64,000 nucleotides of DNA from Octopus vulgaris (lineage: Eukaryota), in assembly GCA_951406725.2 (NCBI GenBank), contig OX597814.1, positions 194,494,001-194,558,000 on the forward strand, in the 5' to 3' direction. Below, one piece after another: positions 361 through 61,400 of this stretch; within the stretch, counting starts at the first letter, position 1; each line of letters opens with the position of its first letter. A program made the position numbers.

Positions 361-3300
361 CCCATTTATCCTATAGATCCATCTATCCTATATATCTATC
401 TGGCTATCAATCGATGTCTATCTATCTATCAATCCATTTATCTACCTTCTGTCTCTATGTATCTCCCTTGTCTGCCTCTTTACCACTTATCTCTTTATGT
501 TGTCACCTATTTCTCTATCTGTGTATCTATCTACCAGTCAACCACCTACCTATTTATCTGTGTATCTATCTATCTCTTTATATATCTATCTGTCTATCAT
601 ATATCTATTTATTTGTCTTTATCCAATTACTGCAGAAGGTTTCAGTATATTTCGAGAATACCTTTCTTCTCAATACTGTGATGAAAACTTAGATTTCTGG
701 AAAGCAGTTGAAGACTTCCGAGTCGAACCTGATGACACCCAAATTCGTGCCCGAGCTGGAGCCATTTATAAAAGATTCATCATGAAGGGAGCACCACGTT
801 GTGTAAGTGTCAGCTTTTTCTCTTCGTTAATAATCAACTCAGAGATTTTTTTTTGTTTTAGATCGATGGAATTTGTAGTTGTGGTACCAGTGCCAGTGGC
901 ACATAAGAGAACCATCTGAACGTGGCCGTAGCCAGCACCGCATCGACTGGCCTCCGTGCTGGTGGCACGTAACAAACACCATCCGATCGTGGCCGTTGCC
1001 AGCCTCGCCTGGCCTCCGTGCCGGTGGCACGTAAAAAGCACCATCCGAGCGTGGCCGTTTGCCAGCCTCGTCTGGCACCTGTATCGGTGGCACATAAAAA
1101 GCACCCACTACACTCACGGAGTGGTTGGCGTTAGGAAGGGCATCCAGCTGTAGAAACACTGCCAGATCTGACTGGCCTGGTGCAGCCTTCGGGCTTCCCA
1201 GACCCCAGTTGAACCGTCCAACCCATGCTAGCATGGAAAACGGACATTAAACGATGATGATGATGATGATGATGATATTTGTTGTTGTCAAGTGGATGAT
1301 AAAGTTTTGTAATGGAAAGGAGGGAGGCACAATGGCCCAGTAATTAGGGCAGCGAACTCACAGTCGGAGGATCGTGGTTTCGATTCCCAGACCAGGCGTT
1401 GTGTGTTTATTGAGCGAAAACACCTAAAAGCTCCATGAGGCTCCGGCAGGGGGTGGTGGTGACCCCTGTTGTACTCTTTCGCCACAACTTTCTCTCACTC
1501 TTTCTTCCTGTTTCTTGAGTAACGCTGCGATGGACTGGCGTCCCATCTAGCTGGGGAGAACACATACACCACAGAAACAGGGAAACCGAGCCCATGACCC
1601 TGGCTAAGATTGAAAAGGGTAACATTTATCGTATAATGGAAAGGGGACACTTCAAACCAGCTTTTGTTAAGGAACGAGACTGATCCAAAATTGGAGTGGA
1701 CTTGGGAGGTCTCTGTTGAACTTGAGGTAAATGTTACTTCACACTTTTTGCCAGAGACAGCAAATTAGCAAAAACGTTTTACCAGACAATTAAGATATTT
1801 TTTAAATTTAAGAAAAAAAATTTTTAATATTTGAAAAAAGTCTTTTACTTCCCTTATACAAGTACGTCCAAAATTCATAAGTAAACAGACTTCCACAGGT
1901 CAAATTCACATACTCTCTTTTACTCTTTTACTCTTTTACTTGTTTCAGTCATTTGACTGCGGCCATGCTGGAGCACCGCCTTTAATCGAGCAACTAGACC
2001 CCGGGACTTATTCTTTTGTAAGCCCAGTACTTATTTTATCGGTCTCTTTTGCCGAACCGCTAAGTAACGGGGACATAAACATACCAGCATCGGTTGTCAA
2101 GCAATGCTAGGGGACAAACACACAAACACACACATGCATATATATATTATATATATACATATATACGACGGGCTTCTTTCAGTTTCCGTCTACCAAATCC
2201 ACTCACAAGGCTTTGGTCGGCCCGAGGCTATAGTAGAAGACACTCACCCAAGGTGCCACGCAGTGGGACTGAACCCGGAACCATGTGGTTGGTTAGCAAG
2301 CTACTTACCACACAGCCACTCCTGCTACATCTTGAAAAAAATCTTTTACTCCCCTCACACAAGTACGTACAAAAGTTCATAATAAGCAGACTTCACAGGT
2401 CAAATTCAACATTCACATATATCTATGGCCATTTCGAGAGATCACCACCACAGTTGACTGGAGTCTGGTGCAGCCTTCCAGCTTACCAACCCTAGTCAAA
2501 CAGTCCATCCCATGCCAGCATGAACAATGGACATTGAATGATGATGATGATGATATATATACATATGTCATGTATGTATGGGTATGTATATCATCATCAT
2601 CATCACTGTTTAACGTCTGTTTTCCATGCTGGCATGGGTTGAACAGTTTGACTGAAGTCCAGAGAGCCAGTGGCTGCACCGGGCTGACCTGGCACGGTTT
2701 CTACAGCTGGATGCCCTTCCTAATGCCAATCACTCCAAGAGTGTAGCGGGTGCTTTTTATGTGCCACTGGCATAGGAGCCAGTCTGGTGGACCTGGCATC
2801 GATCACATTCAGATAGTGCATTTTACATGCCCCTGGCACGGGAGCCAGCCAGAGGGTACTGGCATAGGCCACATTTAGATGGCGCTTTTTACATGCCACC
2901 GATATATATATGATCATCATCAATCATCGTTTAACGTCCGTTTTCCATGCTAGCATGGGTTGGACGGTTCGACCGGGGTCTGGGAAGCCAGGAGGCTGCA
3001 CCAGGCTCCAGTCTGATCTAGCAGTGTTTCTACAGCTGGATGCCCTTCCTAACGCCAACCACTCCGTGAGTGTAGTGGGTGCTTTTTACGTGCCACCTGT
3101 GCCAGGGGAGGCTGGCAACGGCCACGTTCAAATGGTGCTTTTTACGTTCCACCGGCACAGATATCACAACTACAATTTCCATTTGATTTTCTTTATGTTG
3201 ATGTACTTGACTCAATAGGTAAATCATCTTGTTTTTCAGTTCTTTATATATTCTCTTTCTATCTCTCTCTCTCTCTTTTTATTTTCAGATAAATTTGCGC

Positions 3301-58400: not shown

Positions 58401-61400
58401 ATCTATAAATTCGTACAATAAAGATATTTTATGTTTTTGGAATGAATGAATGAATCTGGTGTTGCTCCGGGGTACGGAACCAGCATGATGCGGCGGGGGT
58501 AAACCAGCATATGCTGATAGGTCCCGCTGCTGATATTGGGGGTTGCATTTTATGCCTTTGAGCTGGGAAATAAATGGAATGCCTGGTTTGTGTCTTGTGG
58601 CTACTCACTCCTAAAAAAATGGGGATTTGGCCTGGGTATATATATATATATATATGTGTGTGTATCATCATCATCATCAATATATATATATATATAGATC
58701 ATCATCATCATCATCGTTTAATGTCCGTTTTCCATGCTAGCAAGGGTTGGACGGTTCAACTGGGGTCTGGGAAGCCAGAAGGCTGCGCCAGGCCCAGTCT
58801 GATCTGGCAGTGTTTCTACGGCTGGATGCCCTTCCTAACGCCAACCACTCCTTGAGTGTAGTGGGTGCTTTTTACGTGTCACCTGCACAGGTGCCAGACG
58901 ATGCTGGCAACGGCCACAATCGGATGGTGCATTTTACGTGCCACCGGCACGGAGGCCAGTCGGGGCAGCGTTGGCAACGGCCACGTTCGGATGGTTCTCT
59001 TACATGCCATCGGCACTGGTATCACAGCTACAATTTCCATTGATGTTGATCGATTTCGATTTTGATTTTCATTTTCACTTGCCTCAACAGGTCTTCACAA
59101 GTAGGGTTTGTGTCACAAGAAGGAAAGGTATGCATAAGTGGGCTGGCTATATTTATATTTGTCTTCAGACAATAGCCATGATCAAATTCTGCAGCATATT
59201 TGTTAGAGATTTCACAAACATTACAACTCTCAGTTTGTATATATATTTTTTTTATTTGATGTGGTTTCATATAACATACACAAAACATTACTCTACAACA
59301 TAAATTTACATTAAAAAATCTACATGGCCAATTACACACCAACACACCATACAACTCGTGGTTTTAAATGCTTTACCAAAGACAACTGTAGACAGAAATT
59401 ACTTACAATGATATTTTGTCATCATAGACAGGGTTATTGGAGTCAACTACCATTTTGGTGGAATATCTTGTCCGTTTTTGTTCATCAGGAATTAGTGATA
59501 TCTATAAAATAACATAAAGACATAAACTGAAAGGAACTCATTCTTAGTAGAGAAATTATAAAGAGCAACAGAATTCTGTATCCATTAGCATCTTCGGAAA
59601 TAAATAAAACTAGATTGGATGAATGACAAGCCAACACGAGAGTCACTACATAGTTGCTGTACCTGCTAGAAATAGCAGCTAAATATTCCTCAGACATTAC
59701 TGTAAAGCAGTGGTTTATAGCCTGGGCAGTGTTGGGCACAAAAAAGCAGTAAATGTCAAGAAGGCCATATGGGGTTAGGGGACACTGGGTGTTCAAAGGA
59801 TCCATGCCTTTTCTTAGAAAATATTTAACTCTTTCAAGCTGGGTGGTACAAATAAAGTACCACTTATTTGTATCAGTTTAATGAGCAGTGAAGGCACATG
59901 GTTCAGTGGTTAGAGCGTCAAGCTTACGATCATGAGGTTGTGAGTTTGAATCCTGGACCGGGCTGCGTGTTGTGTTCTTGAGCAAGACACTCTATTTCAC
60001 GTTGCTCCAGTTCACTCAGCTGTAGAAATGAGTTGCAACATGGCATGGAGAAGGGAGGCCGGTATGGATGGGCGACTGCTGGTCTTCCATAAACAACCTT
60101 GCCCGGACTTGTGCCTGGGAGGGTAACTTTCTAGGTGCAATCCCATGGTCTTTGTCTTGACCGAAGGGGGTCTCAGAATGAGCGGAGGTACATAATTCGT
60201 ACCTAAACTTAAAATTCTTTTTGCTGCATGATCAGTTGCTCAAAAAACATTATCACTTCATCTTTCAGCCAATCAGAAGCTCCCCTTACATCTGGCAACA
60301 ATTTTCTGTGACACAAACGGAATATTTTTTTCAATTGAATCCATTTTGTGCCAACGAAAAAACAAGAGTACAAATTTTTGCTATAAATTTTTGCCCTTCT
60401 AGAGTGTTTTTTTTTTTTGGCCTATCTCGCCCCCGAAAGACTTCAAGGAACGATATTTTAAAAGAAAATGATAATAATGGATTTATATTTTGGCACAAGG
60501 CCAGCGATATTTGTGGGAAGTGGGTTAGCCTATTACACTATCTTCAGTACTATATTTTGTTGAACCTGAAAGAATGAAAGGTAAAGTTAACCTTGGCAAT
60601 ATCTGAACACAGAACATACAACCATACATACACACATATATACATAATCATCATTTAACAGTAATCCCTCGCCATATCGTGGTTTACCTATCAGTTTATT
60701 ATGTAAGCTTACGTCGATTCCACTGTGGTGTTGTTTTGCATTTATCATCATCATCATCATCATTTAGCGTCCGTTCTCCATGCTAGCATGGGTTGGACGG
60801 TTTGGGAAGCCAGGCGGCTGCACCAGGCCCAGTTGATCTGGCAATGTTTCTACGGCTGGATGCCCTTCCTAACGCCAACCACTCCGTGAGTGTAGTGGGT
60901 GCTTTTTACATGCCACCCGCACAGGTGCCAGACGGAGCTGGCAAATGGCCACGGATGGATGGTGCTCTTTACGTGCCACCGGCACGGGAGCCAGGCGAGG
61001 CTGGCAACGGCCACGATCGGATGGTGCTTTTTACGTGCCACTGGCACGGGGGCCAGGCGAGGCTGGCAACAGCAATGAACGGATGGTGCTTTTTATGTGC
61101 CACCGGCACGGGGGCCAGGCGAGACTGATATACAAACTATAAAAATAATTTCTATACTTTGCGGATTTTCACCTAACGCGGGGGGTTTTGGAACATAACA
61201 TCCACAATAATCAAGGGATTACAGTATATATGTCTAATGTATTGCAATGAGTTCTTTGTACGTGCTTGGGAGAATTTGTATGTGTGTGTGTGTGCGTGAA
61301 TGTATGTGTAAGTGCAGGATAGTGTTTGCTTGTGTGGTTGTATGTTTGGTTGTGGCAGTGTCTATGCGTGTGTAAAGCTACATACGTATTTACATTATTA

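Follow-up and report, generated by a model that had tools for sequence, protein, structure and literature searches.

PsGEF is a protein with the domain order C2-PDZ-RhoGEF that was described from insects and from the limpet Lottia (Drosophila CG14045 and LgPsGEF, respectively; Higuchi, Kohno & Kadowaki 2009, PMC2684095). According to that paper, the Drosophila protein has no RGS box and its activation of Rac is spoken of, the C2-PDZ region of PsGEF resembles that of vertebrate RGS3, and PsGEF is called protostome-specific, an RGS3-like C2-PDZ gene being proposed to have captured RhoGEF exons. The paper also describes a Daphnia PsGEF without RhoGEF exons and with a PH-like domain in a neighbouring gene model. 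PsGEF is also listed as Protostomia-specific by Fort & Blangy (2017, PMC5499878). Here, a member of this family is described together with a small neighbouring RGS gene from Octopus vulgaris. The stretch of DNA that was analysed, referred to as the window, comprises 64,000 nucleotides (contig OX597814.1 of assembly GCA_951406725.2, positions 194,494,001 to 194,558,000 of the forward strand); PsGEF lies on its minus strand and the RGS gene on its plus strand.

The octopus protein resembles fly and Lottia PsGEF, as they are presented in that source, in its C2-PDZ-RhoGEF order and in having no RGS box, but is shorter (818 amino acids, compared with 1493 in the fly). PMC2684095 makes no mention of an RGS neighbour to PsGEF, and the word 'synteny' is absent from it. 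The C2 and PDZ domains of vertebrate long RGS3 are the best solved-structure matches of octopus PsGEF, and both proteins contain a PsGEF-type PH domain. In long RGS3 the RGS box belongs to the same chain and no DH domain is detectable, whereas the octopus chain contains DH-PH and the RGS box is encoded separately on the opposite strand. A protein of amphioxus that is named 'RGS3' (Branchiostoma lanceolatum CAH1272168.1, 1197 amino acids; P0211) is collinear with octopus PsGEF over C2-PDZ-DH-PH, but has, within the same protein, an RGS box that is strongly R4-type.

The RH-RhoGEFs (PDZ-RhoGEF/ARHGEF11 and LARG/ARHGEF12) likewise combine a PDZ domain, a G-alpha-binding RGS-type domain and DH-PH in one protein that links G proteins to Rho, and, after RGS3, it is their PDZ domains that the octopus protein matches best (30-31 bits). 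They differ in that the RGS-like RH domain (PF09128) precedes DH and in that C2 is lacking. Their Atlas value with the amphioxus protein is only 0.82, and we do not regard them as members of the same family. The small RGS proteins of the R4 subfamily (RGS4, RGS18, RGS2 and RGS1) resemble the octopus RGS protein of about 160 amino acids, which likewise contains little beyond the RGS box.

Both octopus genes are members of known families, and the C2-PDZ likeness is in print. The RGS neighbour, the five-domain proteins of amphioxus and of P0112 (an ENA-derived automatic gene model without a species name), the DH-bearing hemichordate members and the PH domain that vertebrate RGS3 has kept are apparently new. 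No literature on the five-domain form, on a PH domain in RGS3 or on a PsGEF-RGS neighbourhood was found in a coverage without most subscription journals. By their sequences, PsGEF and RGS3 look like one old gene family. The reading that we prefer, with about even confidence, is that the octopus pair resulted from the split of a single ancient five-domain gene by inversion of its terminal RGS block and does not represent a pre-fusion state.

Structure and orientation of the two genes

The window DNA was searched exon by exon, and full-length work was done on database records and not on a joined translation of the exons. The records used were CAI9716593.1 (O. vulgaris GEF, 818 amino acids; P0002), CAI9716592.1 (O. 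vulgaris RGS protein, 161 amino acids; P0017) and the 'RGS4-like' protein of O. bimaculoides (163 amino acids; P0001), which is the orthologue of the RGS gene in the window.

Residues 74-818 of P0002 map at 100% identity to 17 exons on the minus strand, from 59501 down to 14449. All exon borders are GT-AG, and a TGA stop codon is present at 14448-14446. Residues 1-73 were searched for and not found within the window, and the gene continues beyond its right edge. The Pfam matches of P0002 comprise C2 (residues 49-156, 53.6 bits), PDZ (201-273, 40.4 bits) and RhoGEF (364-549, 66 bits against a cut-off of 27.6). The PH domain was detected via relatives and profile comparison; its alignment begins near residue 667, and P0002 ends where the PH domain ends. 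With a stop codon at 14446-14448 right after PH, the polypeptide does not contain the RGS box that characterizes long RGS3.

The RGS gene is represented on the plus strand by its last two exons, both of which are identical letter for letter to stretches of P0017. The penultimate exon (exon A, 636-802; acceptor CAG/AA and donor /GTAAGT, the slash marking the border) starts in phase 1 and encodes RGS box helices that match Pfam RGS positions 11-64 (E 3.8e-14). The last exon (exon B, 3289-3453) matches positions 66-117 of 117 (E 2.9e-11) and consists of a coding part at 3289-3450 with the stop codon TAG (3451-3453) directly after it. Of the two introns that interrupt the octopus RGS box, one precedes GFSIF in phase 1 and the other falls at APRC/INL in phase 0. 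The first ~52 residues of P0017, including the start of the RGS box, were searched for and are not encoded within the window, so the gene extends past the left edge. Because these 5' exons are outside the window, the stand-alone status of the RGS gene rests on database models.

The two genes are convergent and lie tail to tail, with a stop-to-stop distance (14446 - 3453) of 10,993 bp. The spacer between the two stop codons (3454-14445, 10,992 bp) contains repeats only and no annotated gene. The O. vulgaris accessions of the RGS protein (CAI9716592.1) and the GEF (CAI9716593.1) are consecutive, which leaves no annotated protein-coding gene in the interval. The two genes also share one chromosome-size contig in O. 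bimaculoides, as they do in O. sinensis. The window (G+C ~40%) contains no N, so the convergent orientation is not the product of a scaffold gap. When four RGS boxes were compared with the whole window by tblastn, significant matches were obtained on the plus strand at 638-814 and 3286-3450 only, and all others had E >= 0.35; there was no RGS-like sequence on the minus strand, where the search for a further RGS-like exon 3' of the GEF was also negative. A preliminary description of the window had placed the end of an RGS gene at 3453 (+) and that of a C2-PDZ-DH-PH gene, which has a stop codon of its own and lacks an RGS box, at 14446 (-), about 11 kb apart, and exon mapping, Pfam and tblastn agree with it.

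Among all PDB chains, P0002 scores highest with the human RGS3 C2 domain (3fbk, 88 bits, E 4e-24), whereas the classical PKC C2 domains score 54-67 bits. The match with 3fbk continues past C2 into the tail, which contains the motif GWY..LL..LGR.KHL. The motifs pointed out in the preliminary description, G.MSFGV (55806-55826) and GWY.LL (54599-54616), both align to 3fbk. The top PDZ structures are likewise those of RGS3 (1whd, 33.7 bits; 2f5y, 31.9 bits), which are about 3 bits above LARG and PDZ-RhoGEF, and the RGS3-like character that had been ascribed to the minus-strand C2 and PDZ domains is thus retained. The DH domain scores 29-33 bits at best with other solved GEFs (Tiam1 or P-Rex2, 32-33).

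C2-PDZ-RhoGEF proteins of 576-903 amino acids were found in ten further mollusc species by word-indexed searches, and an exhaustive search added C2-PDZ-DH relatives from the annelid Owenia and the centipede Strigamia. Full-length mollusc proteins of the family end at the PH domain, and the RGS box is missing from all family members that carry the name of one of 14 protostome species. With the C2-PDZ region as query, the word-indexed search returned 10 mollusc-type proteins (8 of them from species-named molluscs), one bird NHERF3 and no RGS3; the absence of RGS3 reflects the sensitivity of that search, since RGS3 was recovered by the exhaustive one. P0002 falls in the mollusc clade of the family in both C2-PDZ trees described below. 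On sequence grounds the octopus GEF belongs to the PsGEF family, as assigned within a set that holds no Drosophila or Lottia record identified by name. The earlier statements that Drosophila PsGEF is a C2-PDZ-RhoGEF protein without an RGS box, and that vertebrate long RGS3 joins C2, PDZ and RGS in one chain, are in line with PMC2684095 and with the domain order of five vertebrate RGS3 proteins, respectively.

Five-domain relatives and the PH domain of RGS3

An exhaustive phmmer search of 1.84 billion representatives with P0002 gave 1015 matches at E <= 1e-3, including 62 at E <= 1e-30. The best 149 non-self matches were scanned with the domain slices of P0002 and with the RGS box of P0001. An RGS box was detected in seven of these 149 relatives, namely five vertebrate RGS3 proteins (Pleurodeles, Paramormyrops, Lampetra, Oryzias and Gouania; order C2-PDZ-...-RGS), the B. 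lanceolatum protein P0211 and P0112. The last two proteins also contain a DH domain.

The domains of P0211 identified by Pfam are C2 (92-198, 58.2 bits), PDZ (265-339, 44.5 bits), RhoGEF (511-680, 36.1 bits, cut-off 27.6), a PH-like domain under the cut-off (727-830, 24.4 bits) and RGS (1069-1182, 117 bits). DH-PH is also joined to RGS in the NCBI model XP_066295796.1 (PDZ-RhoGEF-PH-RGS), which comes from a second pipeline, and in XP_035683583.1 (RhoGEF-PH-RGS) of a second amphioxus species, B. floridae. P0002 and P0211 are collinear, with scores of 138, 59 and 45 bits for C2-PDZ, DH and PH, respectively. The middle region of the amphioxus protein was compared with a profile built from the post-PDZ regions of 12 PsGEF proteins (8 named and 4 unnamed), which it matched with a probability of 99.4 (E 2e-21, 334 columns). 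The nearest Atlas clusters of P0211, used as a lead only, are PsGEF-type (0.91-0.93) and then RGS3 (0.90).

P0112 contains C2, PDZ, RhoGEF and RGS in one protein according to Pfam, and its DH-PH region matches the PsGEF profile (probability 98.8, E 1e-16, 317 columns). Proteins with the order C2-PDZ-DH were found in the hemichordates Ptychodera and Glandiceps. In the family as a whole, DH is distributed over protostomes, hemichordates, amphioxus and P0112, whereas RGS in cis is found in chordates and P0112. The DH-bearing members from amphioxus and two hemichordates stand against the description of PsGEF as protostome-specific in PMC2684095.

Vertebrate long RGS3 appears to keep the PH domain of a former DH-PH pair, the DH domain being undetectable. 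A profile of 13 vertebrate RGS3 PDZ-to-RGS regions matched the PsGEF PH domain with a probability of 97.7 (E 1.5e-12, 120 columns, 29% identity), compared with a probability of 0.1 in a reversed-alignment control. No DH remnant was found by profile comparison in these 13 regions (probability 0.1). Pfam SOS1_NGEF_PH matches at sub-threshold level (19-23 bits) at the PH site of salamander and marsupial RGS3, and gave no match in the lamprey and gar RGS3 proteins that were scanned; the octopus PH domain scores 21 bits with gar RGS3 by phmmer. In jawed-vertebrate long RGS3 the PH domain is located between PDZ and RGS, at residues ~523-643 of P0171 and 518-606 of P0221. The retention of PH without DH in vertebrate RGS3 is paralleled by Daphnia PsGEF, which is described in PMC2684095 as having no RhoGEF exons and a PH-like neighbour.

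Two trees of the region from C2 to PDZ were constructed: one of 73 rows by a quick method, cleared of near-duplicates and restricted to rows in which C2 and PDZ each gave one clear match, and a more careful one of 38 hand-picked rows. In the careful tree, amphioxus groups with vertebrate RGS3 (support 93/84) and these group with the hemichordates (91/78). The molluscs (87/93) and the arthropod-type proteins (100/98) form further groups, and P0112 groups with a JGI metagenome protein and an Ephydatia muelleri sponge model (98/95). The groups of the tree roughly track species groups, as would be expected for one orthologous family.

A 17-row group of the 73-row tree and the protein P0077 of the fluke Calicophoron (1274 amino acids) are C2-PDZ proteins in most of which no DH domain was seen. 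This group may represent further losses of DH in the family, like the Daphnia case.

Origin of the arrangement

In the preferred reading, an early metazoan form would have been a single protein with the order C2-PDZ-DH-PH-RGS, and amphioxus would retain such a form. Vertebrates would have lost DH and kept C2, PDZ, PH and RGS. In the octopus line, the terminal RGS exon block would have been inverted in place and thereby severed from the GEF, giving a stand-alone small RGS gene that faces the new 3' end of PsGEF. By geometry, the in-place inversion of a 3'-terminal block would yield exactly such a tail-to-tail pair. The suggestion that one inversion separates the octopus layout from a gene with C2-PDZ-...-RGS in collinear order had been made in the preliminary description, and a gene of this kind, with DH-PH, exists in amphioxus. 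If the early gene had five domains, the octopus RGS neighbour is the natural candidate for the lost RGS end. Predicted short RGS-only isoforms of 188-218 amino acids are listed for the RGS3 genes of lamprey and salamander; they suggest that the block can be transcribed alone, so that a split would be viable. Direct observations are the structure and orientation of the two genes, the C2 and PDZ domains of RGS3 type, the five-domain proteins elsewhere and the PH domain of vertebrate RGS3; from these we infer the identity of the neighbouring RGS gene with the split-off block, the inversion itself and the direction of change. The octopus GEF had earlier been regarded as one half of RGS3; it appears instead to be the whole protostome counterpart of the five-domain gene, of which vertebrate RGS3 would be the form with DH lost and PH kept.

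The affinities of the octopus RGS box bear on this reading. A word-indexed search with exon A, which is 95% identical to P0001, returned a single cluster of small RGS proteins from three Octopus species: the O. bimaculoides 'RGS4-like' protein (163 amino acids), an O. sinensis protein (163), O. vulgaris CAI9716592.1 (161) and a shorter O. bimaculoides model (115). In the one cluster member that was scanned with Pfam, P0001, RGS is the sole domain (positions 1-117, 113 bits), and the database models of 161-163 amino acids in three Octopus species correspond to the small one-domain proteins of the R4 subfamily. The full box of P0001 was compared with PDB and scored highest with the R4 proteins RGS4, RGS18, RGS2 and RGS1 (86, 84, 83 and 82 bits, respectively), followed by RGS3 (76), RGS16 (75) and RGS8 (74.5), so that the seven top PDB proteins in the score ranking are all R4. 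The non-R4 proteins GAIP (RZ), RGS7 (R7), RGS10 (R12) and RGS17 (RZ) scored 74.1, 72.5, 72 and 72 bits, respectively, and fly CG5036, whose subfamily is not assigned, scored 73.5 bits. The octopus alignments show both the (V/I)N(L/I) stretch with its Asn and the ..EN..FW stretch, which would contain the G-alpha contact residues known from RGS4. On these scores the octopus box seems loosely R4-like by a small margin, with no RGS3-specific likeness. As a control, the RGS box of the amphioxus RGS3-type protein scored 145 bits with RGS4 and 130 with RGS3, against 97-98.5 bits for fly CG5036 and then GAIP. The amphioxus box likewise ranks RGS4, RGS8 and RGS16 above RGS3, and rank within R4 is therefore uninformative.

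Several observations weigh against the split of a five-domain gene. RGS3 is only fifth in the PDB ranking of the octopus box, with RGS4, RGS18, RGS2 and RGS1 ahead of it, and the top non-R4 match, GAIP, is merely 12 bits under the best, the margin over RZ, R7 and RGS10 being 12-14 bits; the R4 part of the earlier assignment of this box to an R4-type or RGS3 class is thus kept, whereas the RGS3 part is not. The octopus box is 29-33% identical to chordate RGS3-type boxes and 24% identical to that of P0112, and an Atlas search with the octopus protein, again a lead only, ties clusters of RGS5, RGS10-like and RGS13-like proteins at 0.92. The basic motif AK[DEG]M[KR]..L.F[LF]R[RK], which precedes the box in the short forms of lamprey and salamander RGS3 and in amphioxus and which we take to be a hallmark of the R4 subfamily, is not evident in the octopus alignment; the stretch ahead of the octopus box contains a loosely basic F.KKDR only. 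The adjacency of the two genes is documented within the genus Octopus only.

Further points of this kind concern the relatives. In a single-sequence comparison the octopus DH domain scores 35.5 bits with amphioxus, barely over Tiam1 or P-Rex2 (32-33), so the orthology of DH rests on profile comparison and collinearity. The C2 domain of P0112 scores 72.5 bits with PKC-beta and 55 with the C2 of RGS3, and R12 members are the second-best matches of its RGS box. The direction of change depends on this protein, an automatic model without transcript support, and the Ephydatia model that groups with it is itself only C2-PDZ (347 amino acids). The hemichordate models (492 and 629 amino acids) have DH but no RGS; these models may be shortened or split. 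The backbone of the careful C2-PDZ tree has a support of only 30/59; the tree, of a kind proposed in the preliminary description, joins amphioxus to vertebrate RGS3 and delimits a mollusc clade.

A different history would be that the GEF, with C2-PDZ-DH-PH, had a small RGS gene as its ancestral neighbour, that the two are still separate in octopus, and that they were fused by read-through splicing in chordates, and independently in the lineage of P0112, once they had come to lie head to tail. Fusion of adjacent genes can happen repeatedly, all 14 named protostome species and the hemichordate models lack RGS in cis, and P0112 is an unverified model whose best C2 and RGS matches differ from RGS3. 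This history nevertheless requires two independent fusions with the same domain order, or the dismissal of P0112, which groups with a sponge protein; moreover, the convergent orientation in octopus would have to be ancestral, or a later inversion would be needed anyway. Fusion of ancestral neighbours is regarded as unlikely, and the five-domain origin is preferred over repeated fusion because of P0112 and of the geometry of the pair. The choice between a pre-fusion and a post-fission state, which had been left undecided in the preliminary description, leans to post-fission on the profile match of the P0112 DH-PH region and on the sponge grouping.

The pair may also be a coincidence, in which PsGEF lost or never had an RGS end and an unrelated small RGS gene became its neighbour in Octopus, possibly being kept there for the co-regulation of a G-alpha GTPase-activating protein with a Rho GEF. 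The loose R4 likeness of the octopus box, without RGS3 specificity, and the record of the adjacency from one genus would suit such an origin. However, a genome of tens of thousands of genes contains few small RGS genes, the chance of such a neighbour being about 1 in 1000 by a rough guess that was not computed; a tail-to-tail layout with a GEF that ends exactly at PH is the outcome expected if a terminal block is inverted once, and amphioxus has the same parts in cis. A coincidence is considered rather unlikely. An artefact of assembly or annotation, with the RGS exons truly on the same strand downstream of the GEF in one C2-PDZ-DH-PH-RGS octopus gene, is very improbable. The orientation was seen in one assembly, and an inversion of a few kb can arise by misassembly, but the 64 kb are free of N, the in-frame stop right after PH in the last GEF exon is placed as in other full-length mollusc proteins, and a separate RGS protein of 161-163 amino acids with its own N-terminus is modelled in three Octopus species.

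The split of a five-domain gene can be extended, tentatively and with considerable doubt, to a wider history. A single C2-PDZ-DH-PH-RGS protein of pre-bilaterian origin would have served as a membrane-tethered scaffold that both switched off G-alpha and switched on a Rho-family GTPase. It would have been broken in protostomes by inversion of the RGS block, which gave a small R4-like RGS gene; in vertebrates DH would have eroded with PH kept, and the small R4 RGS genes of vertebrates would derive from the same block. The octopus locus would then be a preserved scar of the break. Judged by their families, the small octopus RGS protein may accelerate GTP hydrolysis on G-alpha subunits, and PsGEF may act as an exchange factor for Rho-family GTPases through DH-PH, with C2 directing it to the membrane and PDZ to partners. 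If the preferred reading of the pair is right, the label 'protostome-specific', as it appears in PMC2684095 and PMC5499878, would be wrong, and the odd make-up of long RGS3, including its PH domain, would gain a simple historical explanation. The locus would also provide a clear case of gene fission via local inversion of a block with its own promoter. A functional coupling of G-alpha deactivation to the activation of Rho/Rac would be predicted, carried by one protein in amphioxus and by two in octopus or fly.

Exons, repeats and annotation of the window

The exons of PsGEF, all on the minus strand, were located by the mapping of P0002. The C2 domain is encoded by the exons at 59407-59501 (residues 74-105; the first exon inside the window, with acceptor tag/ATA and donor /gtaagt), 58129-58197 (residues 105-128), 55782-55842 (residues 128-148, containing GSMSFGV) and 54529-54625 (residues 149-181), the last of which includes the end of C2 and the RGS3-like tail GWYHLLNEKVGRNKHL, also recognized by the PDB match. 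The linker between C2 and PDZ is encoded at 53262-53317 (residues 181-199). The PDZ domain is encoded at 51630-51711 (residues 200-227) and 47814-47919 (residues 227-262), in agreement with Pfam, and its end is found together with an acidic linker at 42863-43127 (residues 262-350). The DH domain starts in the exon at 33698-33871 (residues 351-408), which matches RhoGEF profile positions 1-46 (E 5.4e-4), and continues at 31207-31341 (residues 409-453), 28382-28489 (residues 454-489), 26463-26522 (residues 490-509) and 24765-24858 (residues 510-541). The exon at 20354-20778 (residues 541-682) encodes the end of DH, a Ser/His-rich insert and the start of PH. The remainder of PH is encoded at 17772-17852 (residues 683-709, also located by profile comparison), 16316-16442 (residues 710-752) and 14446-14648 (residues 752-818), the last exon, which contains the end of PH and the stop codon. 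Pfam gave nothing usable for single short exons (two of C2, one of DH and the last of PH), which are too short for such a scan to be informative. The insert between DH and PH is a low-complexity region (residues ~555-665 of P0002) without counterpart in most relatives in the profile alignment.

In exon A of the RGS gene, the sequence at 671-691 (+) encodes SQYCDEN, with Cys at the position where most RGS boxes have Ser; the same Cys is present in the alignment of human RGS2. Cys at this residue of RGS2 is said to contribute to its preference for Gq. The intron preceding exon A contains a (CTAT)n microsatellite of ~139 copies (56-612) that extends up to the exon at 636 and accounts for the open reading frames of repetitive peptide at the left edge of the window.

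A second microsatellite, (ACC)n/(ACTACC)n, is located at 15612-15694 in the last PsGEF intron and gives long poly-V, poly-T and poly-P open reading frames. A unit of 184 bp is present twice in tandem at 13680-14048 (91% identity), 400-770 bp 3' of the PsGEF stop, probably in the 3' untranslated region or the spacer. A short interspersed repeat occurs throughout the introns and the spacer on both strands, with an internal periodicity of 62-66 bp and recurrent peptide-like translations. Sites of this repeat include 890-1105, 2750-2899, 7381-7594, 8673-8825, 13269-13439, 15137-15295, 27205-27378, 34774-35166, 44543-44827, 46655-47107, 52073-52315 and 60853-61092, and by its sequence it looks like an element of the SINE (short interspersed nuclear element) type. 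Six long open reading frames in the introns and the spacer were scanned with Pfam, and no family was found for any of them. Four of these (12305-12763 on the plus strand and 32061-32339, 50919-51236 and 53474-54088 on the minus strand) resemble, by impression only, the C-terminal tails of retroelement proteins; the other two are further long intron open reading frames without a name.

Several names in the databases are misleading. The record of the O. vulgaris GEF bears the name 'Regulator of G-protein signaling 3', which is attributable to automatic annotation on the basis of the C2-PDZ likeness to RGS3, and the proteins P0013 of Mya and P0064 of Glandiceps are named 'RGS3-like'. The neighbouring O. 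vulgaris RGS protein, P0017, is named 'Hypothetical predicted protein'.

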